A stretch of 26,637 bases of DNA from Chthoniobacterales bacterium (GTDB taxonomy: Bacteria > Verrucomicrobiota > Verrucomicrobiia > Chthoniobacterales > Chthoniobacteraceae). Below, piece after piece: positions 9,174 to 25,646 of the stretch. A program made the translations under genes and the position numbers. The stretch spans positions 1 through 26,637 of the forward strand of contig JBBSOD010000001.1 in assembly GCA_038260125.1 (NCBI GenBank), in the 5' to 3' direction. The notes beneath the pieces are model-generated. The model searched no databases, was not told where the DNA came from, and saw nothing but the letters and a program-made list of their open reading frames with translations. Each line of letters starts with the position of its first letter. Positions within the stretch are counted from its first letter, which is position 1.

Positions 9174-10139
9174 CTATTCCTCCCGCGCCGGGGCGGGCTC
9201 GCCAGCGGATTCTGCTCCTGCTCCGGGCTGCCGCGCGGAGGTCGCGGCGGCGTCTTCGTTAGCCGGAGGCAAAGGCTCCTTCACCTGCGCGGCGGCGGGT
9301 TGCTCAGAAGGCTCGAAAGTCGTGCCGCCCTGCGCGGCGGGCTGCCCGACATCCTGCGGCTCACCGGGCGAAGGTGCGGTCTGGCCCTGCGGGGCAGGTT
9401 TGGGAATCAGCGCCGCCATGTCCGTCTGCCACTTGCCGTAATCCTCCGCCGTGTCCACCGTCAGCAGGCCGCGCATAGCGTAATGCCCCAGTCCACACAA
9501 CTGCCCGCAGATAATTTCGTATTCGCCCGCTTTCGTCGGCGTAAACCACACCGGAATCATCTGCCCGGGAATCGCGTCCTGCCCCACCCTCATCGCCTGG
9601 ATGGAGACGTTATGAATCACGTCCTTGGCCATGATCTCCAGAATGACTGGCTTGTTCAGCGGGGTGTGCAGATCGTTCGTCACCACTAGATCGTCCGCCC
9701 CTTCCGGCGTGGAACGGTCGAGTCCGATCGCGTTCGAGGCATCGACGAGTTCGATCTTGCGCGGCCCGAATTTTTTGTCCGCGCCGGGGTAGTGAAAGAT
9801 GAAGTTGAACTGCTGCGCGATCACCCGCACGCGTTCCGCCTGCTCCACCGGAAACTCGTTCACCCGTTTCGCCCAGAGCGGAAAAGCGAACCCGATCAGC
9901 AGCACCGCTTCCACGATCACCACGCTCACTTCCAGGTGCGTCGTGATTTTCGTCTTCGCACCGTAGTAGTTCGCACGGGGATGGCGCGATTTGTGAAAAC
10001 GGAAGAGGACATAGACCAGAAAAATACTCCAGCCCATGAGCAGGATGAGCACTTTCCAGTGCACAAACTCCAGCATCTGATCGATGTGGATGCCGTGCTG
10101 AGAAGCATTGGGAATGAGGCCGAGAAGTCTGTTCAGCAT
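9174..10139 (-). CDS. coxB: Cytochrome c oxidase subunit II (CuA) with Pro/Ala/Gln-rich C-terminal tail
   Basis: Two TM helices, DVIH and CGQLCGLGHYAM CuA motif. Confidence 0.95.
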   Translation of the reverse strand: MLNRLLGLIPNASQHGIHIDQMLEFVHWKVLILLMGWSIFLVYVLFRFHKSRHPRANYYGAKTKITTHLEVSVVIVEAVLLIGFAFPLWAKRVNEFPVEQAERVRVIAQQFNFIFHYPGADKKFGPRKIELVDASNAIGLDRSTPEGADDLVVTNDLHTPLNKPVILEIMAKDVIHNVSIQAMRVGQDAIPGQMIPVWFTPTKAGEYEIICGQLCGLGHYAMRGLLTVDTAEDYGKWQTDMAALIPKPAPQGQTAPSPGEPQDVGQPAAQGGTTFEPSEQPAAAQVKEPLPPANEDAAATSARQPGAGAESAGEPAPAREE

Positions 10140-10154
10140 TTCTAAATATCGAGG

Positions 10155-10388
10155 CTAGGCGGAATCAGTGGGCGGCAGGCCGTTCGAATGGCGGCCGAGA
10201 TAGACCATAAAAACGACGATGCACGCGAGCACGACCCCGAGCACCGCCAGCAGGGCCAGGATGGCGTAACTGAGTGCCTTGGTGTCGGCGGAAGTGGGCG
10301 AGCCGAAGCAGACGGCGCAGGCCTGCGCGGAACCAGTCAGCCCCATCCAGAGCAGTGCAGTCAGCAGCAGAGTCCATCGCGCGCTCAT
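10155..10388 (-). CDS. Small exported membrane-anchored CxxC protein of unknown function
   Basis: Signal peptide ending SAQA, then CAVCFG, then one TM helix. ATGA-coupled to the upstream gene. Confidence 0.8.
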   Translation of the reverse strand: MSARWTLLLTALLWMGLTGSAQACAVCFGSPTSADTKALSYAILALLAVLGVVLACIVVFMVYLGRHSNGLPPTDSA

Positions 10389-10585
10389 AGCACTCCTTTT
10401 GTTTTCCGGATAAAAACCACTTCGTAAACCACCAGCGTCGCGGCCGCGACCAGCGAACCCAGCGCCGCGGCCAATGAAAAACCCGCCCCTGTCTCCAGAT
10501 AACTCAGCAGCGCACCCGTCGCGCAGCCCAGAATCATCAGGACCGCCACGGTGATGAAGAGAATATGGAAGGCTTTTAGCGACAT
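10385..10585 (-). CDS. Small two-TM membrane protein of unknown function
   Basis: MSLKAFHILFI...; two hydrophobic helices; tightly packed in the operon. Confidence 0.75.
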   Translation of the reverse strand: MSLKAFHILFITVAVLMILGCATGALLSYLETGAGFSLAAALGSLVAAATLVVYEVVFIRKTKGVL

Positions 10586-10588
10586 GGA

Positions 10589-10936
10589 TCAGTGCGGCAG
10601 GCGGATAGGATCCCAGTAGTGCAGCCAGGTCAGAAAAAACAGACCGCAGGCAAAGAAGACGGTGAACGCGAGCAGCACGTAGATCTGCCGCCGCTCGTGA
10701 TTCAGGTGCATGAAGATCAGCGCCACCAGCCCGGCTTTAACCGTGGCCACGATCATCGCGATCACGATGTTCGCCTGCATCGAGCCGAAGTCGAAATAGG
10801 ACAACGCCACCGTCACGCCCGTCAGCACGAGCAGCGCGCCGAAGACCAGCATGTAGGCGCGCACATGCACCGTGACGGCGGCGTGCTCGTTCTCGTGACC
10901 CGGCTGCGAGTGAGTCGATGGAGTGCTCATGCTCAT
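10589..10936 (-). CDS. ctaF: Cytochrome c oxidase subunit IV (CtaF/CyoD-like)
   Basis: YMLVFGALLVLTGVTV...IATVKAGLVALIFMHL; three TM helices. Confidence 0.9.
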   Translation of the reverse strand: MSMSTPSTHSQPGHENEHAAVTVHVRAYMLVFGALLVLTGVTVALSYFDFGSMQANIVIAMIVATVKAGLVALIFMHLNHERRQIYVLLAFTVFFACGLFFLTWLHYWDPIRLPH

Positions 10937-11875
10937 TTACAGAAGATAAAAGATGGGAAACACGAAAATCCAGACCAGATCGACGAAGTGCCAGAACAAG
11001 CCGGCCACTTCGAGGCGGTTGGCCAGGTGCTCGGGCTCTGCGTCATACATTTTGCGGCTGCGGAAAAAGAAATAAGTGAAGACCACGATGCCGCCGAAGA
11101 CGTGCAGGCCGTGCAGCCCGGTGATGGTGAAATAGGTCGCAAAATAGTTGCTGTGCTTCGGCAGGAAAGCGGTCGCCCAGAGCACATCCTTCGCCTCGAC
11201 ATGGGCCTGCTTTTCCGACGGCGGCTTGTGCCAGAAATGCGGGCGATCGTTCGCCGGATTGGTCGGGTCGGCGTTTTCCGTATCCAGATTAATATGATAG
11301 CCGAGAATCTGCACGCCCTTCTCCTGCGCCAGGTGCGACACCTCGGAAGGCGAATGAATCTCCACTTCCTCCTCCCGGCCGTCGCGCGAGATATCGACCG
11401 CGTGCAGGTGCCCGGTGATCTCGGTCCGCGGAGCGAGTCCCTTTTTGGCCAGATGTTCGTTGCCCAGATAGGGCTCGTATTTCAGACGGGCCTCCTCTTT
11501 CAGATAAATGCCGAAGTGATCGAACTTCTGCGGATATTCGTAGGCGAGCTTCACTACGAGGAAGATCAGGCCGCACACGATAGTCGCGCCCAGATACACG
11601 AGGTAGTGAGTGTAGCGGCGCATTTTGAGCGAGGCCCAGGCCATGACCACCGTGACCGACGAGAGAATCAGGATGGCGGTGTTCATCGTCCCGACCGGGA
11701 CATTCAGCAGCCCGTGCGGCCAGAAACCCGGCTCAGCCCCAAGCCGCAGGAAGACGTAGCCCGAGAACAGGCCGCCGAAGAGCATCACTTCCGAAGCCAG
11801 AAACAGCCAGATGCCGATCTTGGCGTTCCAAAGCTGCGTGTCCGGCCGCGGCGTTACGGTGTAAGGAATTTCCAT
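10937..11875 (-). CDS. coxC: Cytochrome c oxidase subunit III (short five-TM type) with a large loop insertion
   Basis: GIWLFLASEVMLFGGLF, NTAILILSS, TGLHGLHV and GLFWHFVDLVWIFVFP. Confidence 0.95.
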   Translation of the reverse strand: MEIPYTVTPRPDTQLWNAKIGIWLFLASEVMLFGGLFSGYVFLRLGAEPGFWPHGLLNVPVGTMNTAILILSSVTVVMAWASLKMRRYTHYLVYLGATIVCGLIFLVVKLAYEYPQKFDHFGIYLKEEARLKYEPYLGNEHLAKKGLAPRTEITGHLHAVDISRDGREEEVEIHSPSEVSHLAQEKGVQILGYHINLDTENADPTNPANDRPHFWHKPPSEKQAHVEAKDVLWATAFLPKHSNYFATYFTITGLHGLHVFGGIVVFTYFFFRSRKMYDAEPEHLANRLEVAGLFWHFVDLVWIFVFPIFYLL

Positions 11876-11887
11876 AGCAGTCTCTCG

Positions 11888-13777
11888 TCAGGCACGGGGC
11901 TGGGTTTCGGGCGAATCCACCATCGCCTGATCGACCAGATTCGGTCGCGCTTTTTCGGTGACGCCATCGCCTCGCAGCGTCTCCGTTTTCTCCGGTAGCG
12001 GCAGCCATTGCGGGCTGAAATCGGCCGCCACTTCGGGATGGCTGTACTCGTAAGGCCCGGTGTAAGCGGAAGGCTGGGTCGCGAAGTTGCCGTGCGGCGG
12101 CGGCGAAGGCGCGGCCCATTCGAGCGTGGTCGCGTCCCACGGATTGTCCGAGACCAGGCGGCCGAACTTGATGCTCAGGAAGAAATTCAGAATGAACGGG
12201 ATCTGGAAGAGCCCCAGAATGAAGGCTGACCAGAACATGAAAGGATTCCAGTGCAGCACATTCTGCGTGAGATCCCAGCCCGCGCCGCCGTCATACCAGC
12301 GGCGGTGCATGCCCGCCATGCCCTGCAGAAACATCGGAAAGAATATGCCGTTCATGCACGCGAAGGAGCCGAAGAAATGCACCCGCCCCCAGAACTGGTT
12401 CATGTTTCTCCCCACCGCCTTCGGGTACCAGTAATAAACGCCCGCGAAGATGGCGAAAATCGTCCCGGGCGCGACGATGTAGTGAAAATGCCCGATGACG
12501 TAGTAGGTGTCGTGCAGGTACAGACCGATCGAGTTGAAGGCCAGCGGAATGCCGGTCAGACCGCCCAAGCCGAACATGGGCAGGAAGCCCGTCGCGAAAA
12601 GCATCGGCACGGTGAACTTGATCGAGCCGCCCCAGAGAGACATCAGCAGCACAGTCACGATGACGACCGACGGCACGGAGATCAGGACCGTCGTCGTCTG
12701 GAAAAAGGTGCTCACCTTACTCCCCATCCCGGTCAGATACATATGATGCGCCCACACCACGAAGGAGAGAAACCCGATGCCCATCGTCGAATAGACCAGG
12801 CCCTTGTAGCTCCAGAGCGGCTTGCGCGTGCCGTTGGCGATCACGTCGCCCACGATGCCGAGGCCCGGCAGGATGAGCACATAGACCTCGGGATGCGCCA
12901 GGAACCAGAAAAGATGCTGCCAGAGCAGCGGACTGCCCCCGCCCGCCACCGCCCACGGCTGGCCGTTCACCACCAGACCCGACGGCATAAAGAAGCTCGT
13001 GCCCGCCACCCGGTCCATCAGCTGCATAAAGCTCGCGGCTTCCAGCGGCGGAAAGGCCAGCAGCAGCAGATACGCCGTGACCATCTGAGCCCAGACAAAA
13101 TACGGCATCCGCATCCAGCTCATGCCGGGCGCGCGGAGCTGGATGATCGTCGTAATGAAATTGACCGAGCCCAGCAGTGACGACGTGATGAGCATGACCA
13201 TGCCCAGGAGCCAGAACGTCTGACCGGTCATCCACATGTTCTCGTGCAGCCCGTTGACCGCTGCCAGCGGCGAATAGGATGTCCAGCCCGATTTGGCCGC
13301 CCCGCCCGGCACGAAGAAGCTGACCAGCATGATCACGCCGCCCACCGCAAAGGACCAGAAGCTGGCCATGTTGATCTTCGGGAACGCCATGTCCGGCGCG
13401 CCGATCTGGAGCGGCACCACGTAGTTGCCGAAGGCCGCGAAGGCCACCGGCACGATACCGAGAAACACCATGATCGTTCCGTGCATCGCGCCCAGCTCGT
13501 TGTAGAAATCCGAAGCCATCACGCCGTCCTTAAACGCCTCTTCGCCGAGCACGTTCTCCACTATTTTCCCGATGATCGGCAGCGGATCGCCCGGATAAGC
13601 GAGCTGCCAGCGCATCAGCATCATCAGCCCGAAGCCGAAGAGGAGAAAGGACAGGCCGGTGATGCCGTACTGGATCCCGATGACCTTGTGATCGGTCGAA
13701 AAAACGTATTTCTGCCACCACCCCAGTTCATGGTGATCGTGGTGTTCTTCGTGATGATGAGCGGAGGCGCTGTCCAT
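11888..13777 (-). CDS. coxA: Heme-copper oxygen reductase subunit I, A1 type
   Basis: DHKVIG, MHGTIM, GAPDMAFPKIN (D-channel), WFLAHPEVY, VWAHHM, GHFHY and GMHRR. Start at ATG 13777. Confidence 0.97.
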   Translation of the reverse strand: MDSASAHHHEEHHDHHELGWWQKYVFSTDHKVIGIQYGITGLSFLLFGFGLMMLMRWQLAYPGDPLPIIGKIVENVLGEEAFKDGVMASDFYNELGAMHGTIMVFLGIVPVAFAAFGNYVVPLQIGAPDMAFPKINMASFWSFAVGGVIMLVSFFVPGGAAKSGWTSYSPLAAVNGLHENMWMTGQTFWLLGMVMLITSSLLGSVNFITTIIQLRAPGMSWMRMPYFVWAQMVTAYLLLLAFPPLEAASFMQLMDRVAGTSFFMPSGLVVNGQPWAVAGGGSPLLWQHLFWFLAHPEVYVLILPGLGIVGDVIANGTRKPLWSYKGLVYSTMGIGFLSFVVWAHHMYLTGMGSKVSTFFQTTTVLISVPSVVIVTVLLMSLWGGSIKFTVPMLFATGFLPMFGLGGLTGIPLAFNSIGLYLHDTYYVIGHFHYIVAPGTIFAIFAGVYYWYPKAVGRNMNQFWGRVHFFGSFACMNGIFFPMFLQGMAGMHRRWYDGGAGWDLTQNVLHWNPFMFWSAFILGLFQIPFILNFFLSIKFGRLVSDNPWDATTLEWAAPSPPPHGNFATQPSAYTGPYEYSHPEVAADFSPQWLPLPEKTETLRGDGVTEKARPNLVDQAMVDSPETQPRA

Positions 13778-13909
13778 GCTGGTATAAGCGAATCTAATGT
13801 TTAGCACAGGCCCGGCGGTCGGACAACCGGACTTTGCTCAGAATTGAAAGGGACATTTGCCATTCGACTGTCCCAGTGAAAAAGGCGCGCGGGCCGCAGG
13901 CGGAATGAC

Positions 13910-14731
13910 TCACGAAGCCGCCCCCCCCTCGGCTGCGGGAGGAGCTTCTCCGGCGGGCGGAGCGCCGCCCGGCAGCGTATCGTTTTCGGGAATGGCGAGC
14001 AAATCTTCTTCCGTCATGGCTCCGGCATGTCCCTGCAACGCCGCGCGGGCCGCCGCCATCTGCTCGGGTGTGACCGGCGGGGCACTGTTCCCCCAGGCCT
14101 GTCGGATGTAGGTCAGGATGTGCGCGATCTTTTCGTCCGTCAGGGTAGGTCCCCAGGCCTGCATGACACCCGAATAGGCCTGCTTCTGGCCGTTGATCGT
14201 GATCGGCCCGGCGAGTCCATGCAAGAGGATCGAGGCCAGGCGCTTGTTGTTGCCGGTCACCCATTCGCTCCCCGCGAGCGGCGGATACTGCCCCGCCGCG
14301 CCTAGTCCGGTCGCCTGGTGACAGGTCGTGCAGTTCTGCTTGTAAAAGATCTCCCCGAGCTGCGGCGAAGTTTTTTCCGTCTGCTCCTCACCTTTCCCGG
14401 CGCCGTCTCCCGACGCGAAAAACATCCCCGGATCCCAGCGCCGCTCGCTGTAAACGTCGCTCCGGAAAGCGCCGCTGAAGAGCATGAGATAGCCGCCGGC
14501 CCAGAAGATGGCCGCGCCGCACAGAATGATCAGCCACAGCGGAAACGTGCCGAGCGATGCCTCCCCTTCGCGCCGCAGGGATGGCTCCGGCTTTTCGCGC
14601 TGGACCGCGTGCTGATGCGTGATGTCCTGGCCTTCGGTGTAATCCACCTCGCCGGTCATTTCCCCTTCGGGATACTTCTGCGGCGTCAGCTCGGGCGGAA
14701 CTTTCCCCGCTAGTTCGTCACGATTCTTCAT
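13910..14731 (-). CDS. Membrane-anchored class I monoheme cytochrome c
   Basis: One TM helix, CTTCH, YPPLAGSEWV and axial Met in GVMQAW. Confidence 0.92.
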   Translation of the reverse strand: MKNRDELAGKVPPELTPQKYPEGEMTGEVDYTEGQDITHQHAVQREKPEPSLRREGEASLGTFPLWLIILCGAAIFWAGGYLMLFSGAFRSDVYSERRWDPGMFFASGDGAGKGEEQTEKTSPQLGEIFYKQNCTTCHQATGLGAAGQYPPLAGSEWVTGNNKRLASILLHGLAGPITINGQKQAYSGVMQAWGPTLTDEKIAHILTYIRQAWGNSAPPVTPEQMAAARAALQGHAGAMTEEDLLAIPENDTLPGGAPPAGEAPPAAEGGAAS

Positions 14732-15450
14732 TGAGCGCCTTTCTCCGTGGAAGTTTCCTCCGCCGCCGGTGCCGCCGTCTCCGCGTCTCCGGCTCCGCTC
14801 GCCTCCGCGTCTTTCTTCTCCTCTTCCTTCGCTTCGGTCAGCGCCTCGGGCAACGGATGCGTGCGGTCGAGCGAAAGCAGATAGCCGACGAGCGCCCGCG
14901 CGTCATCCGTAGGCACGATCTCGTAGCTGGGCTGGCCGATTAGCACGCCCTTCATGATGGCGATCGCATCGTGCGAGACCGCGCCTGCAACCTTCCGCTT
15001 CTCGAAAAGAAAAGAGTAGGGCGGCATGATCGAGCCCGGCGACACACTGCGCGGGTTGTACAAATGCCGGTAGTGCCAGTGCGCGTCGTCGCGCCGTTTA
15101 CCGATGCTCGAGAGATCGGGGCCGAGGCGGTTCCACCCCGCCAGCATGGTGGTATCGTAAAGGTAATCGCGCGCCACGTTCTGCCTTGTGCCCCATTGCC
15201 GGACGATCCCGGTGTCAGCGTAGCCGGGCAGAAGCTGCTGGCTGTGGCAGTTCACGCACCCGTTCGCCACATACACGGCCCGGCCCTGCGCGACCACGCC
15301 GGAGCGATTCACCGGATAGACATCGCCCGTGTCCGCATCCACCTGCGGCTCCAGCGCATCGAGCTGGAGAAACGGAATCGCGACCATCACGATCCAGCCC
15401 AGCGTGAAGAGGGCGAACACCCCGCCGAGGACCGAGCCGAGCTTATTCAA
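14728..15450 (-). CDS. CcoO/FixO-like monoheme cytochrome c
   Basis: N-terminal TM, GRAVYVANGCVNCHSQQ, RLGPDLS, HLYNPR and SIMPPY (axial Met). Confidence 0.9.
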   Translation of the reverse strand: MNKLGSVLGGVFALFTLGWIVMVAIPFLQLDALEPQVDADTGDVYPVNRSGVVAQGRAVYVANGCVNCHSQQLLPGYADTGIVRQWGTRQNVARDYLYDTTMLAGWNRLGPDLSSIGKRRDDAHWHYRHLYNPRSVSPGSIMPPYSFLFEKRKVAGAVSHDAIAIMKGVLIGQPSYEIVPTDDARALVGYLLSLDRTHPLPEALTEAKEEEKKDAEASGAGDAETAAPAAEETSTEKGAQ

Positions 15451-16916
15451 TGGGCCACCTCCGCAGGTTGAGGGACGATCAGCGTGGGAGCGCCGCCCGG
15501 TCGCCCGAGCCGGGCGAGCATCATGAGAAAATGCAGGCCGAAGACGGTTTGCCCGAAGAAGAGCAGCACCTGCGCGATGGTGCTGCCGGCCAGAAACGGC
15601 AACGTGCTTTCATAAACCTGCTCGAATGAATTACCCGGATCCATCATGGCCGCCCCCTGCATGAGCCCGCCCACCAGGAGCATGAGGAGGAGGAGCCCGA
15701 TGCCGTAGGCCGCGCCCCAGAAGTGCAGTTTGATCAGCCAGGCCGAGCGCCACTCCACGCCCACCAGCCGCGGCACGATGTAGTAGATGCAGCCAAACAT
15801 GACCATGCTGAAAAAGGCGTAAAGATCCAACTGGATCAAGCCGCGCGCGCCCATCGTCAGGTGCATGAAGTGACCGGCCGAGCGCAGCGAGAAGATAATG
15901 TTCAGGCAGCCCGCCAGCGTGTAGGCCATGGCCCCGATGACCACGAACCGCAGCGTCGGGCTGAAGTGCATCATCGTGATGTTCTGGCGCAGCGTGAAAT
16001 GATGATTTACCGCCACCGTGGCGATGGGAATGATGGTCAGGACCGAAGCCACGATGCTCGCCGTGATGACCCATGAAGGCAGCGGTCCGCCCAGGAAGGC
16101 GGGCAGTCCCCGGAAGCTGTAGAAAAGGACGAAAGTCCAGAAGCCGAACGTGGCCAGGTGATAGCTGAAAATGGGCAGCCCGGTTACTTTCGGGATCATA
16201 TAGTAGGCCGCCGCCAGCCCGATGGCGGTGAGCCAGAGCCCGAAGAGATTGCCCGCGAACCAGAAGACGATCGCGCTCTGCACTGCGCCCTCGACCGGCA
16301 GCACATGCAGCATCAGATTTCCAATGGCATAGATCCAGGGGAAGGCGAAAAACGCGCAGATCAGATACCACTGCGACACGAAGACGTGCCCGCTGCGCCG
16401 GAAGCGGTAAAGGACCACGCCCCAGATGCCGATGGCGGAGTAGCCGAGAAAGATCAGCACCGCCGCGTAGCCCGGAAACTCGAGATAGGGGAACGGTCCG
16501 CCCGCGCCGGCCAGAATGGCGATCGTGCCGACGATCAAACCGAGATTCCAGAGCGCCGCGCCGAAGGTAATGAAGAGCGGGTAGCGCAGTTCGACCCGGC
16601 AGAGACGGGCCATGATCCAGATGGCCGTGCCCACGCCGGCCAGCGAGGCCCAGCCGTAGAACATGAGGTTGTTCTGCACCGGGACGAGGCGGCCGAAGTT
16701 CAGCGCGGCGCAGAAGGAAAGGAAACCCGGATAGTGCAGCTTGATGCTGGTGATGAGGCTGATCAGGCTGGCCAGGAAGAGCCAGAAAAGAGCCGAGGCA
16801 TAAAACAGCAGCACGGGAAACCGGGTCGAGGTATCGATCGCGGCGCGCTCGCGCGCTTCCCGCGACGGCCCGGCGGTCTGGGTCACTGGCATTTCCTCTA
16901 AAGTGGCGGCGGTCAT
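15447..16916 (-). CDS. CcoN-like (cbb3 subunit I fold) membrane protein lacking all heme/Cu histidines
   Basis: FGRL, YLEFP, VSQWY, YYMIPK..G.PIFSYHL..FGFW, YYIVPRL and HFW motifs of CcoN are present, with ligand positions substituted. Paired with the ccoO-like gene by an ATGA overlap. Confidence 0.85.
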   Translation of the reverse strand: MTAATLEEMPVTQTAGPSREARERAAIDTSTRFPVLLFYASALFWLFLASLISLITSIKLHYPGFLSFCAALNFGRLVPVQNNLMFYGWASLAGVGTAIWIMARLCRVELRYPLFITFGAALWNLGLIVGTIAILAGAGGPFPYLEFPGYAAVLIFLGYSAIGIWGVVLYRFRRSGHVFVSQWYLICAFFAFPWIYAIGNLMLHVLPVEGAVQSAIVFWFAGNLFGLWLTAIGLAAAYYMIPKVTGLPIFSYHLATFGFWTFVLFYSFRGLPAFLGGPLPSWVITASIVASVLTIIPIATVAVNHHFTLRQNITMMHFSPTLRFVVIGAMAYTLAGCLNIIFSLRSAGHFMHLTMGARGLIQLDLYAFFSMVMFGCIYYIVPRLVGVEWRSAWLIKLHFWGAAYGIGLLLLMLLVGGLMQGAAMMDPGNSFEQVYESTLPFLAGSTIAQVLLFFGQTVFGLHFLMMLARLGRPGGAPTLIVPQPAEVAH

Positions 16917-17580: not shown

Positions 17581-18777
17581 TCAGTTGGAAAGGTTCACCG
17601 AGCGGACCAGATGCGGATCGCGCAGCGGATAGAGAGGCTGGCCGAGCATCAGTTTTAGAAAGACGAATCCTAGAATACCCCCGAGCGCGAGCACGGTGAA
17701 GATATCGAGGAAATGAGGAGCAAAGCCGAACTGATGCAGCATCGGCATGACAATAATATAGATGTCCAGCATCTGCATGAGGATCAGCCAGCTCGCGATC
17801 CCGCAGATAACGGCCGTTTTTTTCTTGAACTTCTGCAAGAGCCGCAGCGGGAAAGGAGTGAAAAAGCGACCGATGACCAGAATGAGGCTGAGGATATTCC
17901 ACGACCCAATGTTACGCCGCAAAAAGTAGGAGGTTTCCTCGGGAATGTTGGCATACCAGATGAGCATGTACTGGCTGAACCCGATGTAGGCCCAGAAGAT
18001 GCAGAAGGCCAGCATCAGCTTACCCATAATGTGATAATGCTCTTCGGTCACATCCTGCAGGTAGCCCCCCGCTTTCAGACCGCTAACAATCAGGACCAGC
18101 AAACACATGGCGCTCCCCGCCGAGCCGGCGAAAATATAGACACCCCACATGGTGGAGAACCAGTGGTGATCGAGTCCCATCAGCCAGTCGATGGCCGCGA
18201 AAGTCAACGACACCGCGAGGATGGGTATGCCGACGAACGAGAGCCGCCGCAGGTGGATGGTGCGGCGCGGATGGCCGTCGGAATCCTGCCGGACAGATAG
18301 GAGCCGGGCAAGAAAAGCGACAGCGAAGAGCAGGACGAAATAGGCAACCGCGCGGATGAGAAAGAACGGGATGTTGAGATAACCCTCTTTTTTATCGAGC
18401 AGCGAATCGATGCCCGGCGCGAGGCCCCACCACTTGAAAAGAAGGGGCGCGCAGAGCAGCATCGGGATCACGAGAATGGCGAGCACGCCGATAAGCACGG
18501 CCACATTTTCCAACTGCCGCCGCACCAGCACCGACCACTCGGCATCGGTGGCATGATGCACCAGGATCCAGAAAAGCGAGCCGACGCACATGGTGAAGAA
18601 CACCATGAACGCAAACAGATAGGAGAAGGCGAACTGCACCGGATTAAACAGACCGCAGAGGACGGTGCCTAGAATCCCGACCACCGCGGCGGCCAGAAAG
18701 ACGGTCGGCAGAATACCGAGATGCTTTCGGTCGAAGCGCTCGGGCATCGGCGCGCGGGAATGTGCGTGGCTGTCCAT
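17581..18777 (-). CDS. actF: ACIII subunit ActF
   Basis: FAFSYL..., HHATDAEWSVLVRR, DWLMGLDHHWFSTMWG, FWAYIGFSQYMLIWYANIPEET; ~10 TM helices. Confidence 0.92.
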   Translation of the reverse strand: MDSHAHSRAPMPERFDRKHLGILPTVFLAAAVVGILGTVLCGLFNPVQFAFSYLFAFMVFFTMCVGSLFWILVHHATDAEWSVLVRRQLENVAVLIGVLAILVIPMLLCAPLLFKWWGLAPGIDSLLDKKEGYLNIPFFLIRAVAYFVLLFAVAFLARLLSVRQDSDGHPRRTIHLRRLSFVGIPILAVSLTFAAIDWLMGLDHHWFSTMWGVYIFAGSAGSAMCLLVLIVSGLKAGGYLQDVTEEHYHIMGKLMLAFCIFWAYIGFSQYMLIWYANIPEETSYFLRRNIGSWNILSLILVIGRFFTPFPLRLLQKFKKKTAVICGIASWLILMQMLDIYIIVMPMLHQFGFAPHFLDIFTVLALGGILGFVFLKLMLGQPLYPLRDPHLVRSVNLSN

Positions 18778-19499
18778 TATTGCGGGCCTCCCTCGGCAGG
18801 TGCGGCGGGTTCAGGCGCGGGTTGGTCGAGCCGGGCGAGTTCGTGAGCGGGCACATCTTCCGCGGTCGCATTCACTCCGCGCTGCAAAGCGCGCAGGTAG
18901 GCGATGATGGCCCAGCGGTCGGGCACGGTGATATTTCCACCGTAGGAGCCCATGTTGCCTTTGCCGTGCGTGATCGTGTCGAAAATCTGTCCGTCCGGCA
19001 GCGCGCTGACCCGGGCGTCGATAATCGGGACGATGGTGGCGAGGCCGTATTGTTTAATGATGCCGTTGCCTGCGCCGGTCTGGCCGTGGCAGATGGCGCA
19101 ATTGATATTGAACCGCTCCCGGCCGCGCTCCATCACCTGCATATTCAAATCGAGCGGAATGCCATTGCCCCAGTTTTCGCCAATCTTCCCGGTGTCTGTA
19201 TAGTCCAGCCCGTTGCTGAACCCGGCCGGCTTTACCGTCACGCGGCTGTTGCTCGCGGAGGTGGTAAATGCGACGCCCGGATTGGCGTAGCCGCGCGGCA
19301 CGGTGCCCGCGACCGGTTCCCGCTGAACCTTGCCGTCGGCGAAGAAATCGCTCTCGTGCTGCGGACGGTATTTCGGCTGATCGTCCATATCCGGCAGAAT
19401 CTCGATAGGCGGACGCGTGCTGTGTGTGCCGCGGAAACCCGCGATGGCCAGCACGGCGATCACACCGATAAAGAAGAGGGCGAAGAAGTAGCGCAGCAT
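18777..19499 (-). CDS. actE: ACIII subunit ActE, monoheme cytochrome c
   Basis: DMDDQPKYRPQ..SDFFADG, GTVPRG, CAICHG, HGKGNM and DRWAIIAYLRALQ. Confidence 0.92.
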   Translation of the reverse strand: MLRYFFALFFIGVIAVLAIAGFRGTHSTRPPIEILPDMDDQPKYRPQHESDFFADGKVQREPVAGTVPRGYANPGVAFTTSASNSRVTVKPAGFSNGLDYTDTGKIGENWGNGIPLDLNMQVMERGRERFNINCAICHGQTGAGNGIIKQYGLATIVPIIDARVSALPDGQIFDTITHGKGNMGSYGGNITVPDRWAIIAYLRALQRGVNATAEDVPAHELARLDQPAPEPAAPAEGGPQ

Positions 19500-19501
19500 C
19501 T

Positions 19502-20050
19502 CTATTCCTCGACCAGGGTGACGTATTTTCCGCCGATCTTCTCGAGGAAGTCGCGGGTGCGGGTTTCGGCAAATTTAGGATCGCGCGACTCGATCACGAG
19601 GAAAAATCCATCGTCGGTCACGCGGGAAAAGCGATCCCAGTTAAACATGGGGTGATACCATTTCGGCAACTGATTGAAGACCAGCATCGCGAAGAACGCG
19701 GTAAAGGCGGAAAACAGAATGGTCAGCTCGAACATGATCGGCATGAAGGCCGGCACGGTGAAGAAGTCGGTCGGCTTGGCGTTGACCACCGTCTTGTATT
19801 CGATCAGAGCCGGATACATAGTCAGCGCCGTCGCGGTGAGCAGACCCGCGATGCCGCCAGCGAGAACCGGCGCGCTGAGCCAGGATTTTCCGAGGCCCAT
19901 CGCCTTATCCATCCCGTGGATCGGGAAGGGCGAATGGACATCCCAGCGCTTGAAACCTTCGTCGCGCACCTGTTCAGCCGCCTCGAAGAGCGCCTTCGCG
20001 GTCGAGAACTCCGCCGCCACTCCGTAGATTCGTTTAGGTTCGGCGATCAT
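19502..20050 (-). CDS. actD: ACIII subunit ActD (DUF3341)
   Basis: AEF...DVHSPFPIHGMD, PAFMPIMFELTILF and DDGFFLVIE. ATG 20050 is coupled to the actC stop. Confidence 0.92.
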   Translation of the reverse strand: MIAEPKRIYGVAAEFSTAKALFEAAEQVRDEGFKRWDVHSPFPIHGMDKAMGLGKSWLSAPVLAGGIAGLLTATALTMYPALIEYKTVVNAKPTDFFTVPAFMPIMFELTILFSAFTAFFAMLVFNQLPKWYHPMFNWDRFSRVTDDGFFLVIESRDPKFAETRTRDFLEKIGGKYVTLVEE

Positions 20051-21495
20051 TATTCGGTCACCTCCGTGGAATGAGCGTCCATCCCGATCTGCGCGTCTTC
20101 GACATGGTGATGCGGATCGGCCTCGGGGCTGACCAGTTTCACCTCGGACATGGCGATCATGGGCAGGAAGCGGATGAAGAGCAGGAAGAGGGAAAGGAAA
20201 ATACCGAACGTGCCGATGAAGGTCCAGATCTCCACCCACGACGGGTGATACATGTGCCAGGCGCTGGGCAGGAAGTCCTGCACGATGGAAGTCACGATGA
20301 TGACGAAGCGCTCGAACCACATGCCCGCGTTGACAAACATGCAGACGATGAAAACCACAATCAGATTTCTCCGCATGCTGGGGAACCAGAAGATCTGCGG
20401 CGAAATTACATTGCACGTCATCATGCAGATGTAGGCCCAGACGTAGGGACCGCCCACGATGCGGTTCCAGAAGGCGGCGCGCTCGAAGGGGTTCGCGCCA
20501 TACCAGGCGATGAACAGCTCCATCAGGTAGGCGTAGCCCACGATCGAGCCGGTCAGCAGGATGATCTTGCACATCTTATCAACGTGCGCGGGCGTGATGA
20601 GATCCTTCAACGCGGGGTAAATGAGCCGCGCGGGCAGCATGATCGTCAGCACCATGGCGAAGCCGCCGAAGATGGCGCCAGCGACAAAATACGGCGGGAA
20701 AATAGTGGTGTGCCAGCCTGGGACAATCGAGGTCGCGAAGTCGAACGACACGACGGAATGCACCGAAAGCACCAGCGGCGTAGAGAGACCCGCCAGCAGC
20801 AGATAGGCCATTTCATAGTGCCGCCACTGCCGGTTCGAGCCGCGCCAGCCCAGCGCGAAGATGCCGTAGATGACCTTCTTAATCTTGCTGGTGGTGCGGT
20901 CGCGCAGGGTGCCAAGATCGGGCACCAGCCCGGTGTACCAGAAGAGCACCGACACCGAAAAATAAGTCGAGACCGCAAAGACATCCCAGAGCAGCGGGCT
21001 GCGGAAGTTCGGCCAGATGGCGTTGGCGTTTGGCACTGGTGCCAGGAACCACGCCATCCAGACGCGGCCAACGTGGATGCCGGGGAAAATACCGGCGCAG
21101 ATCACCGCAAAGAGCGTCATCGCTTCCGCCGCGCGGTTGATCGAGGTGCGCCATTTCTGGCGAGTCAGAAAGAGAATGGCCGAGATCAGCGTCCCGGCGT
21201 GGCCGATGCCGATCCAGAACACGAAGTTGGTGATGTCCCAGGCCCAGCCGACGGGGTGATTTTCTCCCCACACGCCGACACCGGTCGAAATCTGGTAGCC
21301 GATGCAGAACAGCCCGATCATGGCGATGGTCGAGCAGATCAGAAACGACACCCACCACCACAGTTTCGTCGGGCCTTCCACGATCCCGGCCACGTTTTCC
21401 GTGACCCAGTTCAGACTGCGGTTGTTGGTGATGAGCGGCGGACGCTGGACCGCCGCGATCTCTTTCGCCGTGGGTGGCGGCAAGGTGCGAGCCAT
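20050..21495 (-). CDS. actC: ACIII quinol-binding subunit ActC (NrfD/PsrC family)
   Basis: [57 protein letters not shown] and [16 protein letters not shown]. Confidence 0.96.
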
Positions 21496-21519
21496 TAGCG
21501 TGAACCCTCCGTATGCAAC

Positions 21520-21710
21520 CGTGGCATCGGCATCCTGCCGATGATTCTGGTCTGACTTTCAGTGCAGCCGTGGCAGCTAGATAAAAATGTCCGATACATC
21601 ACGCGCTGACCTCCGTGAAGTTAGTGGCTGGATGATTGGCTGGAAGCCAACGCCACGGGGGACAGGGAAAACTCCGCGGCAGGCGTGGCGTCGGCATCCT
21701 GCCGATCATC
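21520..21710. repeat. Cluster of three GTGG-type REP-like units between actB and actC
   Basis: Units at ~21520-21545 (+), 21631-21657 (-) and 21684-21710 (+). The last two form an inverted pair. Loops are ATCCT or TTCCA. Confidence 0.85.
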
Positions 21711-21765
21711 CACTTCTGACATTCAGAGCAAGCGTTCATTCTGCGGGAAAAGTGTGTCGAAATGC

Positions 21766-24700
21766 TCACGCGCCCACCTCCACTGCGGGCTGCGAAATGG
21801 GCTCGTTCGGCCCATGATGACTCTCCGGACTGCCGTGCTCCTCTTCCATATAGGCCGCTGGTTCGTGCGCGCCGGGCATGGCCGGGTTGAGGTTGCGGAT
21901 CCGGGCCAGATAACTCACCCGCGCTTTCACATTCAGATAATCGAGCAGCCGGTAATTGCGCGCGTCTCCCTTTAGTTTCGACACCTTGCTGTCGAGATTC
22001 ATCAGGTCGCCGAAGACGATCGCCTCCGACGGACACGCCTGCTGACACGCCACTTGGAAAACATCCACCGGAATTCTGATGTCGGGCGAGGACCCCGCCC
22101 GCACCTTTGCCGTGATCTTCGCCTCCTCGATCCGCTGCAGACAGAACGTGCATTTTTCCATCACGCCGCGCATCCGCACGGTCACGTTCGGATTTTTCTG
22201 CATCTTCACCGTGTCGGGCGAACCCTTCTCGGTCAGCGGTCCGAAATAGAGACCCTGCGCCTTGATCGGCCCCATCTGCATCTGCTCGATGGGCCGGGAA
22301 TTGTAGTCGAAGAAATTAAAACGCCGCACTTTGAACGGGCAGTTGTTCGCGCAATACCGCGTGCCGATGCAGCGGTTGTAGGCCATCACGTTCAGCCCCT
22401 CGTTGTTGTGCACGGTCGCGTTTACGGGGCAGACCGTCTCGCACGGCGCGTTCTCGCAGTGCTGACACATCATCGGCTGCGAAATCATTTCCGGGTCGTC
22501 TTCGTGGCCCTCGCGCGTTGCGTAGTAACGGTCCAGACGGATCCAGTGCATCTCGCGCCCGCCCATCACCTGAGTCTTGCCCACGACCGGGATGTTGTTT
22601 TCCGCCTGACACGCCACCACGCAGGCGTTGCAGCCGGTGCAGGTGTTCAGATCGACCGTCATGCCCCACTGCTCCGCGCCGTCGAGCGGCGGGTTGGTGT
22701 AAAGCGATTCCATCCCGGCGTCGGGATTTTCCGCGTCCATCCACATTTTCTGCGCGAACTCAGGATGCTCGTCGTATTTTGCCTTCGAGCCTTCGCGGAT
22801 TAACGCCCGGCCTTCCATGCTCCAGTGGTCCTGAGTCACGCCGAGCGGATAAGAGCCGCCGGTCTTCGTGATTTTCGCGCCGGTTAGAATGTAGGGCGAG
22901 TCGCTCAACAGCAGCGGAAATGCGTCCACGCCGCTGCCCGAAGCCACGCTGCCGATCATCCGGCGGCCGTAGCCGAGCGTCACCGTGATGGAATGATCCG
23001 CGTGTCCCGGCGAAATCAGCACGGGCATCTCGATCGACCGGCCGGCCACTTCGATCCTGATAATGTCGCCCGCCGTCGCCCCGCCCAGCACCCCGTTAGG
23101 CGCCTCGATTTCATAGCGGTCCGCCATCGCCTGATTCATCAGCGCGACGTTATCCCACGTCATCTTCGTGACGGGATCCGGCGTCTCCTGCAGCCAGCTC
23201 ACGTTGGCCCAGCTTCCGTAGCCCAGCTTGTAATCCGGCACCAGCACCACCTCCACCGCGTCCGCCGAAGCGGGCCGCAGTGGCTTTCGGTTGCCCGCAC
23301 CTTCGTCCCGTCCGCCGCTTAGCGAGAGCGCGCGCGGGGCTCCGGCGCTGTCTTTTTGAAAACCCGTCCGCAACAGCTCGTTCCACGCTTCGTCGAACGC
23401 CGCGCCGCTCGCGCCGGAGCGCTCCTGGAAAGTTTCCTGCACCCGCGCCGGACCGTGCGGATGCCCGTCGCCCGCCAGCATAGAGAGCAAATCGTTTTCC
23501 GACCAGCCGTCGTAGAGCGGCAGGATCATCGGCTGCATTGCGAGGTAGCTGCCGTCCGCCGCCAGCCCGTCGCCCCAGCTTTCCAGATAATGCGCAGCCG
23601 GCACATGCCAGCGGCTGACCGACGTGGTTTCGTCGTAGTTCAGCCCCAGCCGGATCGTTTCGGGCACGGCTTCCTGCAACTTCACCCAGCCCAGATCGGC
23701 GGGCGCATTGTAGGCGGGATTTCCTCCGAGAATGAAAAGCGTTTTGACCTGCTTGACTCCCATCTGCCACGCCAGATCGGTGATCGTCGCCGCCGGTTCC
23801 ACGTCCGACTGCTGGCCTTCCAGCGTCTGACCCAGCCCGCCGAGCGCCTGATTGATGGCCAACGCCGCCCGCTGCACCGCCGCCGGCTGCCGCGGACCCA
23901 CCGCCACCAGCGCCCGACCGCCCGCCGCCTTCAGATCCTTGGCCGCCTCGCGAATCCAGCCCTCGGGAAAAGTCACCCCCGCGGCCGCTTCCAGCCCGCC
24001 CGCCGACGCGCCCAGTTCCGCCGCCAGTTGCCGCGTAAACTCGCCCACATGACTGGCCGGGAGCCGCAGCCGGTGATCCGCCATGCCGCCGGTGATCGTA
24101 TAATGATTCTCCACCGCGTAGAGGCGGTTCATTTTGCCGCCGCCGTCCTGCTTCACCCCGCGCCGCCGCGCAAAATCGCGCTGATACCGCCCGCTCGCGT
24201 CCTCCGTGCCCAGCAGATCGCAATCCAGCGTCAGAATCACATCCGCATTCGCCACATTATAACTCTCTTGGACGCCCGGACCGAAGGCCGCACCCGCACC
24301 TGACAGCCCGCCCGGCTCATAGACCGCCCACATCGCCTGCGGAAACCGCTGCAGCACTTTTTTCCGCAGCCGCTCGCGCGTCGGCGAATTGCTTTCCTCC
24401 AGCAGCAGCGCCATTCCCGCGCCGCCGTCGCCTTCATGCCGGGCCAGCAGCTTCTCCAGATGCTTTTCGAAAATTTCCGCCTGCACCTGCTCCTTGTCGC
24501 GGATGAAATTTTTCGCGCGATCCGGATCGTAGAGCGCCAGCACCGAGGCCTGAACCTGCATGTCCGAACCGCCGTTGCTGGCCGGATGCTCCGGATTTGC
24601 ATCCACCTTGATCGGACGCCCGTCCACTGTCGTCACGATCAGCGGGATCGCCCCGCCCGCCCGCGGCATCGAGCTCGCGTAGAAAAGATTTTTGCCCGGA

Positions 24701-24972
24701 ATCGTCCACTCCGAGCTCTTGACGAACGGCAGCAGCTTGTGCTCGGGGCGGCGGCAGGCGGCCAGACCGAGCCCCGCCAGCGCCGTCGAAGCGCCCATCA
24801 GTTTCAGGAAACTCCGGCGCGTCACTCCGTCCATCTCCAGCTCGGCGGCTCCGGCCGGGAACTCGCGGGCCAGCGCCTCGCGGAAGTCAGGCGTGTCCGC
24901 CAGCTCAGCCGGGCTCTGCCAGTAACGGCGCTCGGACTTCGGGGCGGGCGGGTGGTGGAAAATTCGTTTCAT
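21766..24972 (-). CDS. actB: ACIII subunit ActB (molybdopterin-oxidoreductase-like domain plus Fe-S domain)
   Basis: YWQSPAEL N-terminus, Tat motif TRRSFLK followed by LAAC, and four Cys clusters (CTGCNACVVAC, CQHCENAPCETVC, CIGTRYCANNC, CTFC...CQQAC). Confidence 0.96.
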   Translation of the reverse strand: MKRIFHHPPAPKSERRYWQSPAELADTPDFREALAREFPAGAAELEMDGVTRRSFLKLMGASTALAGLGLAACRRPEHKLLPFVKSSEWTIPGKNLFYASSMPRAGGAIPLIVTTVDGRPIKVDANPEHPASNGGSDMQVQASVLALYDPDRAKNFIRDKEQVQAEIFEKHLEKLLARHEGDGGAGMALLLEESNSPTRERLRKKVLQRFPQAMWAVYEPGGLSGAGAAFGPGVQESYNVANADVILTLDCDLLGTEDASGRYQRDFARRRGVKQDGGGKMNRLYAVENHYTITGGMADHRLRLPASHVGEFTRQLAAELGASAGGLEAAAGVTFPEGWIREAAKDLKAAGGRALVAVGPRQPAAVQRAALAINQALGGLGQTLEGQQSDVEPAATITDLAWQMGVKQVKTLFILGGNPAYNAPADLGWVKLQEAVPETIRLGLNYDETTSVSRWHVPAAHYLESWGDGLAADGSYLAMQPMILPLYDGWSENDLLSMLAGDGHPHGPARVQETFQERSGASGAAFDEAWNELLRTGFQKDSAGAPRALSLSGGRDEGAGNRKPLRPASADAVEVVLVPDYKLGYGSWANVSWLQETPDPVTKMTWDNVALMNQAMADRYEIEAPNGVLGGATAGDIIRIEVAGRSIEMPVLISPGHADHSITVTLGYGRRMIGSVASGSGVDAFPLLLSDSPYILTGAKITKTGGSYPLGVTQDHWSMEGRALIREGSKAKYDEHPEFAQKMWMDAENPDAGMESLYTNPPLDGAEQWGMTVDLNTCTGCNACVVACQAENNIPVVGKTQVMGGREMHWIRLDRYYATREGHEDDPEMISQPMMCQHCENAPCETVCPVNATVHNNEGLNVMAYNRCIGTRYCANNCPFKVRRFNFFDYNSRPIEQMQMGPIKAQGLYFGPLTEKGSPDTVKMQKNPNVTVRMRGVMEKCTFCLQRIEEAKITAKVRAGSSPDIRIPVDVFQVACQQACPSEAIVFGDLMNLDSKVSKLKGDARNYRLLDYLNVKARVSYLARIRNLNPAMPGAHEPAAYMEEEHGSPESHHGPNEPISQPAVEVGA

Positions 24973-25646
24973 CGGTGACAGCCCGAGCAGTTCTGTGGCG
25001 GATTCACGCGCCAGGCATTCTTGAGTTTCAGGCCGATCTCGCGCTGCGACTCGATCGCGTTGCCCGACCCATCGACCGGCGGATGCCAGGCCAGATTAAA
25101 GACCTCGCTCTGCGGCCGCAGATGATTCTCGGGCGCGCGGTGACAGTCCAGACAGAAACTCATGCTCAGCGGTTTCTGGTGCGAGACCACCTTCATTTCA
25201 TTGACCGGGCCATGGCAACTGAAGCAGCTCACTCCCCGGTTCACGTGCACCGAGTGGTTGAAATAAACGTAGTCCGGCGTCTTGTGCACCTGCACCCACG
25301 GGATCGGCTGGCCCGTTTCCACGCTCTGGCGCACCGTGGCCAGCTTCGGGCTGTCCCAGAGCACCCCGCCCTCGCGATGGCAGTTGTTGCAGGTCTGCGT
25401 GTTCGGCACGTTCGAGTGCGCGCCCACCTCCACGAAACTGTGGCAGTAGCGGCAGTCCATCCCGAGCTGCGCCACATGCACATCGTGCGGAAAAGCCTGC
25501 GGCTGGTTCGGCTCGTAGCCTACCCGCGTGTATTTCGGCGTGAAATAATACCACACGCCAGCCGTCACCGTCCCGCCGAGGATCAGCAGGCAGAGAATAA
25601 TCTTGAGCGGAAGAAAATTCGTCCAGCGCGGGAAAAAGTTCGCCAT
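24969..25646 (-). CDS. actA: ACIII pentaheme cytochrome c ActA
   Basis: One TM helix and five CxxCH motifs (CRYCH, CNNCH, CFSCH, CLDCH, CSGCH); YVYFNHSVH. ATGA overlap with actB. Confidence 0.96.
   Translation of the reverse strand: MANFFPRWTNFLPLKIILCLLILGGTVTAGVWYYFTPKYTRVGYEPNQPQAFPHDVHVAQLGMDCRYCHSFVEVGAHSNVPNTQTCNNCHREGGVLWDSPKLATVRQSVETGQPIPWVQVHKTPDYVYFNHSVHVNRGVSCFSCHGPVNEMKVVSHQKPLSMSFCLDCHRAPENHLRPQSEVFNLAWHPPVDGSGNAIESQREIGLKLKNAWRVNPPQNCSGCHR

Follow-up and report, generated by a model that had tools for sequence, protein, structure and literature searches.

The window, which is the whole stretch of DNA analysed here (26,637 nt; forward-strand positions 1-26,637 of contig JBBSOD010000001.1, assembly GCA_038260125.1, a Chthoniobacterales bacterium from soil), encodes an A1-type heme-copper oxidase whose subunit I, CoxA, has isoleucine in place of the K-channel lysine. 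An earlier note on this DNA had claimed an A1-type oxidase lacking that lysine, and we find that this holds and that the loss is conserved throughout a clade of relatives. Based on sequence comparison and structural modelling we tentatively propose, with slightly less than even confidence, that coxA, coxB, coxC and coxD encode an oxidase that is functional, reduces O2 and probably pumps protons, and whose K-side proton route would have been remodelled and not lost. The coxA gene is read from the minus strand, a detail absent from the earlier note, and the features in it on which the argument turns are:

11888-13807, minus strand: coxA, A1-type heme-copper oxidase subunit I, 639 amino acids (aa) counted from GTG
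12881-12895, minus strand: HPEVY motif, with the CuB ligand His305, D-channel Glu307 and cross-link Tyr309, 100% conserved in the clade
12845-12850, minus strand: Gly320-Asp321, aligned to the helix VI positions S291/H292 of P. denitrificans (Pd), codons verified
12659-12661, minus strand: Ile383 codon ATC, aligned without gaps to the position of Pd K354 and R. sphaeroides (Rs) K362, codon verified
12653-12679, minus strand: helix VIII stripe Ser377, Ser380, Ile383 and Thr385, from clade conservation

The top PDB matches to CoxA using phmmer were 1ar1_A (P. denitrificans, E 6e-113) and 1m56_A (R. sphaeroides), with E about 1e-112, and the best structure matches were of the A family throughout. 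In the region of helices VI-VIII, CoxA residues 320-423 align to both structures without gaps (HMMER/phmmer), which places Ile383 at the lysine position within the helix VIII sequence ISVPSVVIVTV and Gly320 at Pd S291, with the equivalent of Pd T351 retained as a hydroxyl residue, Ser380. Both the gap-free placement of Ile at K354/K362 and the loss of the helix VI serine, where GIISH reads GIVGD, were thus correctly described in the earlier note. A Lys or equivalent residue appearing on realignment had been named beforehand as the result that would speak against the claim; the alignment contains no Lys or Arg inside the membrane-spanning parts of helices VI-VIII, either in the query or anywhere in the clade, and basic residues near these helices are confined to the cytoplasmic loop (R328, K329 and K335) and the cytoplasmic end (K/R397). 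Misalignment concealing a lysine is ruled out by this result together with the gap-free alignment, and a sequencing error or pseudogene is ruled out by the open frame and by the residues found in relatives; because the residue there is Ile, Leu or Val in every close homologue (128/128) and every genomic relative (43/43), loss of the lysine is far beyond chance or sequencing error.

Likewise, the six His ligands, the cross-link Tyr, the Glu of HPEVY and the D-channel Asp and Asn residues, which the earlier note had listed as intact, are all in place. The A1 signature LAHPEVY spans residues 303-309, the ligands of heme a, heme a3 and CuB are present (His109, 305, 354, 355, 440 and 442), and the D-channel is complete (N128, D139, N146, S149, S209, S210 and N216, equivalent to Pd N113, D124, N131, S134, S192/193 and N199), with the six His, Tyr309, Glu307 and the D-channel residues 96-100% conserved across the clade. 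Set against the features that define A1 heme-copper oxidases, the enzyme has the His ligands, HPEVY, the D-channel, a CuA subunit II and a subunit III, and lacks the K-channel Lys and the helix VI Ser; its complete D-channel also sets it apart from the B family, which has no D-channel and a K-analogue path of Tyr, Ser and Thr. The coxA product matched PF00115 with 426.8 bits (cut-off 34.8) and scored 552.9 bits against TIGR02891, the NCBI CtaD/CoxA equivalog, for which the cut-off is 670.75. Public records of the clade in part carry the misnomer 'cbb3-type cytochrome c oxidase subunit I'. The true start of coxA is likely the ATG at 13777, because the homologue P0004 (92% identical) is 629 aa long.

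The protein search covered 5.8 billion proteins and returned thousands of relatives, the best 120 of which were 67-92% identical to CoxA, with those that were named labelled Verrucomicrobia or Chthoniobacterales. An alignment of 228 homologues held a group of 128 sequences combining LAHPEVY or LGHPEVY with I/L/V at the Lys site, and 71 with Lys; in the clade the site is I in 83%, L in 14% and V in 1%, and in the lysine-containing group (K-group) it is K in 100%. Furthermore, in a genomic comparison set of 80 loci from species genomes, every one of the 43 at 56% identity or above had Ile, Leu or Val at the site, and relatives at 41-47% identity had Lys throughout, one Binataceae locus excepted. 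The CoxA alignment and phylogeny that the earlier note had called for define the lysine-less clade, which is monophyletic in the FastTree tree (23 rows, support 100) and sister (support 96) to three further lysine-less sequences, with at least six changes of lysine state needed across the sample. Its members come from Verrucomicrobiota, including the cultured Rubritalea marina DSM 17716 and metagenome-assembled genomes (MAGs) labelled Prosthecobacter and Luteolibacter, from Acidobacteriota (Vicinamibacterales, Thermoanaerobaculia) and Planctomycetota (Phycisphaerae), and from Marinimicrobia, Omnitrophota, Myxococcota, Thermodesulfobacteriota, Elusimicrobiota and Bacteroidota; the clade is under strong constraint over at least eight phyla. 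Within Verrucomicrobiota the enzyme is patchy and not universal, with a copy at 63% identity or above in five of 120 sampled species genomes, the organism's own genome not counted.

Other lysine-less lineages of the A family were also seen among the homologues (P0176, P0186, P0208, P0216, P0236, P0250, P0261, P0264 and P0266; P0209, P0219, P0224 and P0246; P0138; and P0173, for all such lineages). One has Gln at the site, and its proteins, mostly ~800-870 aa in length, are perhaps fusions of subunits I and III. In several more, an acidic residue precedes the Lys site on helix VIII by one or two positions (IPFE, LPFD, VPIAE), and one has Glu at the Lys site itself.

Loss of the lysine is accompanied by a set of clade-specific changes around it. 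On helix VI, position 320 is A in 82% and G in 10% of the clade, compared with S in 98% of the K-group, and the residues that differ from or match the usual enzyme at each Pd position are:

Pd S291 (helix VI): usually Ser; in the clade Ala or Gly
Pd A348: usually Ala (90% of the K-group); in the clade Ser377 (100%)
Pd T351: usually Thr; in the clade Ser380 (99%)
Pd G352: usually Gly; in the clade Val381 (99%)
Pd K354: usually Lys; in the clade Ile or Leu383
Pd F356: usually Phe (92% of the K-group); in the clade Ser or Thr385 (100%)
Pd S/N357: usually Ser or Asn; in the clade Ala
Pd W358: usually Trp; in the clade Phe or Leu (position 387)
12944-12979, minus strand: clade-specific 12-residue insertion on the periplasmic (P) side, residues 277-288, gapped in ~90% of the K-group

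At the cytoplasmic surface the clade features are Glu321 (96%; Asp321 in the query), N325, N326, W332, K335 and R397. In an AlphaFold2 model of CoxA, with a predicted local distance difference test score (pLDDT) of 89.1, the P-side insertion forms a β-hairpin (DSSP strands at about 279-284), and residues 275-285 contact CoxB in the complex model described below. Beside the insertion, the usual GGGDP reads GGGSP and a Tyr is replaced by Trp296.

We also examined subunit II, which contributes the entrance of the K-channel:

9174-10139, minus strand: coxB, CuA subunit II, 321 aa, matching PF00116 and TIGR02866
9930-9932, minus strand: CoxB Glu70, the K-channel entrance Glu (Pd E78/Rs E101, motif LE..), aligned with the canonical LE
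9909-9911, minus strand: CoxB Glu77, a second Glu in transmembrane helix 2 (TM2), seven residues deeper than Glu70, where canonical enzymes have the Pro of LExxWTxxP

Across 34 CoxB sequences of the clade, conservation of Glu70 is at least 90%, and the residue lies in the modelled interface. Glu77 is invariant in the same sequences (34/34), and Glu was found at this position in none of 38 lysine-containing relatives. The CuA site (H176, C211, C215, H219 and M222) is formed by columns that are invariant in the clade CoxB alignment. Its motif, CGQLCGLGHYAM (9474-9509, minus strand), has Gln213 in the position of a Glu whose usual role includes binding at the Mg/Mn site, and this Gln is invariant in the clade and occurs in a few lysine-containing relatives as well.

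A complex of CoxA(25-600) and CoxB(1-250) was modelled, and it scored 0.83, compared with 0.00 for the best of three controls, a mark attained by 58 of 80 solved complexes and two of 110 mismatched pairs; this result probably reflects likeness to solved aa3 complexes, and it informs the register of the helices and not function. Runs agreed in at least 96% of contacts, with partner pLDDT of at least 83. The CoxB TM2 residues contacting CoxA were 66, 69-70, 73-74, 77, 80-81 and 84-86, and the helix VIII residues contacting CoxB were 377-378, 381-382, 384-386 and 388-389; Ile383 falls outside the listed interface residues, where an unlisted residue is to be read as uncertain. In aa3 oxidases CoxB TM2 and CoxA helix VIII run antiparallel. 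Taken with the interface lists, this would therefore put Glu77 at about the depth of residues 384-386, which is that of the lost Lys, beside Ser/Thr385, a placement that is an argument from register in the model and not a measured contact.

These observations suggest how a remodelled route could operate. The D-channel would work as usual, and it is the K-side input, which supplies protons to the binuclear centre while that centre is being reduced, that would be altered. Protons would still enter at CoxB Glu70, would then pass to CoxB Glu77 as a new mid-membrane carboxylate set against helix VIII by Ser/Thr385, at about the depth of the normal Lys amine, and from there would reach Tyr309 by way of water molecules and the Ser380 and Ser377 hydroxyls. 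Glu77 may thus carry protons in place of the lysine. The more specific proposal, that the mid-channel proton carrier has moved to subunit II with a changed charge, a buried TM2 Glu and a helix VIII Ser/Thr together replacing the subunit I Lys, we regard as possible but hold less firmly than the remodelled route as a whole.

We favour remodelling because the K-side residues are retained (Glu70 at least 90%, Ser380 99%) and new buried polar groups have become fixed; retention of Glu70 and Ser380 combined with the gain of Glu77, Ser377 and Ser/Thr385 is a pattern not expected from simple abandonment of the K side. In the rus-operon oxidases, which lack the lysine too, the entrance Glu has been lost as well. 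The earlier note had offered a D-channel-only or an alternative route, a choice that goes beyond what sequence can decide, and of its two halves the evidence leans to the alternative one. D-channel-only operation nonetheless remains a serious rival, although we consider it rather unlikely: here the K side would be dead, chemical and pumped protons would all travel by D139...E307, and the new polar residues of subunits I and II would serve packing or assembly. The fully conserved D-channel is compatible with this, and the classical K lumen has become more hydrophobic, with I/L383, V381, A/G320 and F/L387, the last replacing Trp; the A-type oxidases of Acidithiobacillus rus operons, which are hydrophobic at K354 and have no entrance Glu, offer a parallel. 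However, an entrance Glu70 and a Ser380 kept at these levels, and an invariant buried Glu77 gained, are hard to explain for a route that is not used, and K-to-M mutants of canonical enzymes, in which the D-channel is intact, are nearly inactive in the reductive phase. Several points weigh against the remodelled route itself. Ile383 and Val381, the latter a Gly in canonical enzymes, contribute to the more hydrophobic lumen, and the interface lists place both Glu77 and Thr385 at the interface but do not show contact between the two. Furthermore, the sister lysine-less group (L046, Binataceae) has Pro at the CoxB Glu77 position, so Glu77 is not needed by every lysine-less enzyme, and because the clade is single, Glu77, Ser/Thr385 and the loss of Lys count as one evolutionary event and not as statistical covariation. 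Our literature search also turned up sequence catalogues only, and nothing on the biochemistry or expression of any member of the clade.

Two further readings were weighed. Input could follow a 'KC-channel' like that of the C family, through helix VI/VII hydroxyls at the equivalents of cbb3 S240, S244, H247 and Y255, which is how the supplementary tables of Degli Esposti et al. 2021 (PMC8239418) class A1 sequences of Elusimicrobia and Methylacidiphilum with the same pattern (Y, A/G, I/L, S, C/V, E ... S, S). The site of the cbb3 cross-link Tyr is taken by Ser348 in 100% of the clade, but this Ser is shared by the closest lysine-containing relatives (Bacteroidota and the Bradyrhizobium type, ..LSFVVWAHHM) and is hence unlinked to loss of the lysine; position 340 is Ser in just 56%, and no equivalents of the cbb3-path Tyr and His were seen in the clade alignment. 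Given that Ser348 is common to these lysine-containing neighbours, we downgraded this reading and now think it improbable. It is more improbable still, to the point that we give it very little weight, that the enzyme is not a respiratory O2 reductase and is instead a decayed paralogue or performs other chemistry, such as NO reduction or non-pumping scavenging. The score below the TIGR02891 equivalog cut-off could be taken that way, and the organism's own genome (a MAG, 84% complete, 712 contigs) encodes a canonical A2-type caa3 oxidase with Lys on another contig (C13, L001:335-3072; YSHPAVY, SIPSAIKVF; CoxB fused to cytochrome c), which means that the present enzyme need not serve there as the sole oxidase. 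On the other side, the metal ligands, cross-link Tyr, CuA site, D-channel, subunits III and IV and heme A biosynthesis genes are all intact, conservation over phyla is strong, and the lysine-less enzyme is the only PF00115 match in two of five relatives' genomes searched, those of a Vicinamibacterales (4.1-Mb contig) and a Neomarinimicrobiota; cytochrome bd (PF01654) was not found in any of the five. As the only oxidase found in these two genomes it must therefore support respiration there, and this suggests that the lysine-less enzyme is probably a working main oxidase. In Rubritalea marina it occurs alongside a true cbb3 oxidase. The organism's own genome also contains, on contig C405 (L004:3-380), an N-terminal fragment of a third A-type subunit I, which lies at the contig end.

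Compared with the canonical A1 aa3 oxidases (P. denitrificans 1AR1/1QLE, R. sphaeroides 1M56), the present enzyme has ~40% identity, the same 12-helix core, six His and HPEVY, the full D-channel, a CuA subunit II with its entrance Glu, and subunits III and IV. It differs in the replacement of K354 by Ile, S291 by Gly/Ala, G352 by Val, F356 by Ser/Thr and W358 by Phe/Leu, and in the 12-residue P-side insertion, the second CoxB TM2 Glu, CxQxC for CxExC in CuA and the gene order I-III-IV-small-small-II. Like ba3 of T. thermophilus (B family), it would have a lysine-free input path of helix VIII hydroxyls and a subunit II Glu, with Ser377 and Ser380 matching by their spacing what we take to be the equivalent ba3 residues, S309 and T312; ba3, however, has no D-channel and uses helix VI Tyr residues, whereas the present enzyme has a D-channel and no such Tyr. 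The alternative complex III (ACIII)-associated aa3 oxidases of Bacteroidota (Flavobacterium johnsoniae type) are among the nearest lysine-containing relatives (41-43% identity) and adjoin actABCDEF, but these have Lys, Ser291, Pro in CoxB TM2 and the order II-I ... III. The rus-operon aa3 oxidases of Acidithiobacillus and Acidiferrobacter likewise belong to the A family, have I/L/V/M at K354 and conserve the D-channel; they differ in having lost S291 and the COX2 entrance Glu (the latter listed in a PMC8239418 supplementary table), in being classed A2 by evocell, in their extra N-terminal helices and in forming a separate lineage.

The earlier note treated the feature as newly seen, and here it has to be corrected, since the residue pattern is already tabulated in the supplementary tables of PMC8239418. 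In Supplementary Table S1 of that paper, Elusimicrobia, Ca. Calescamantes and Methylacidiphilaceae make up an A1 'KC channel' subclade, entered as 'K-channel: no, KC', and the residue table (for Fig. S7) gives Y-A-I-S-C-E for Elusimicrobia and Y-G-L-S-V-E for Methylacidiphilum, with COX2 E78 kept in both. The tabulated pattern at Pd Y280, S291, K354, T351, S357, E292 and COX2 E78 is Y, A/G, I/L, S, C/V, E and E, and the query agrees with it at Y309, G320, I383, S380, V386, D321 (Glu in 96% of the clade) and CoxB Glu70. The likeness was drawn through this pattern and through same-taxon relatives in our clade (L039, Elusimicrobiota; L009, Methylacidiphilales), and not through the paper's own subclade sequences (OGR57075, WP_134389983). 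As tabulated, that subclade comprises three taxa and is read as cbb3-like, whereas the clade defined here is much wider, with Acidobacteriota, Planctomycetota, Marinimicrobia, Omnitrophota, Myxococcota and more; the pair of CoxB Glu77 and Ser/Thr385 does not appear in the supplementary residue table. The Degli Esposti group has also described Ile and like residues at K354 in the oxidases of iron oxidisers and, under one evolutionary scenario of theirs, seven independent K-channel losses in archaeal family A oxidases, and papers on Methylacidiphilum mention an aa3-type oxidase without characterising it. Sequence catalogues thus already contain A-type lineages that lack the lysine, this residue pattern among them, and we believe that what is added here is the wide range of the clade, the observation of its enzyme as the only oxidase found in some genomes, and the interface stripe of Glu77, Ser/Thr385 and Ser377.

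The genes around coxA form a minus-strand cluster of actA-F, a trio of ccoN-like, ccoO-like and cytochrome c genes, coxA, coxC, coxD, two small open reading frames (ORFs), coxB, ctaA and ctaB, of which the last two provide intact heme A biosynthesis genes:

17581-25646, minus strand: actA-F, ACIII genes
13910-16916, minus strand: divergent ccoN-like/ccoO-like/cytochrome c trio, between ACIII and coxA
10937-11875, minus strand: coxC, subunit III, 312 aa, with PF00510 matched in two stretches and synteny in relatives
10589-10936, minus strand: coxD, caa3-type subunit IV family, TIGR02229 52.7 bits, above the cut-off
about 10385-10585, minus strand: small ORF 1, a 66-aa two-helix membrane protein, from intergenic translation
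about 10155-10388, minus strand: small ORF 2, an exported CxxC protein (CAVC motif) with one TM helix, from intergenic translation

The order I-III-IV-small-small-II was seen again in most clade loci, and either of the small ORFs between coxD and coxB could encode an additional oxidase subunit located near the I/II interface. In coxC an insertion of more than 100 residues separates the N-terminal and C-terminal conserved parts, and the conserved halves lie ~1.2-1.4 kb apart in several Verrucomicrobiae relatives. The ccoN-like gene scored 125 bits against TIGR00780 (cut-off 583), and the trio is kept in Verrucomicrobiae relatives, including Rubritalea marina, which has a true cbb3 as well. A tie between the loss of Lys and the ACIII/cbb3-like module is ruled out, as the loci examined from Acidobacteriota, Planctomycetota, Marinimicrobia and other non-verrucomicrobial groups hold lysine-less coxACD-B genes with no such module in their 10-kb flanks.

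The value of these findings is tempered in that the pattern was known from sequence catalogues and the present evidence is computational. Nevertheless, the K-channel Lys is regarded as essential to A-type oxidases, bacterial and mitochondrial alike, and a large and abundant lineage does without it. This lineage belongs to dominant soil and water phyla and so amounts to a natural experiment on what the K-pathway truly requires. The hypothesis of Glu77 in subunit II and Ser/Thr385 names concrete residues for mutation, and carriers such as the cultured Rubritalea marina DSM 17716, together with Prosthecobacter and Luteolibacter, would make the Glu77 reading directly testable. If Glu77 does stand in for the Lys, what the K-pathway essentially needs would be a titratable group placed at that depth, and not lysine as such.

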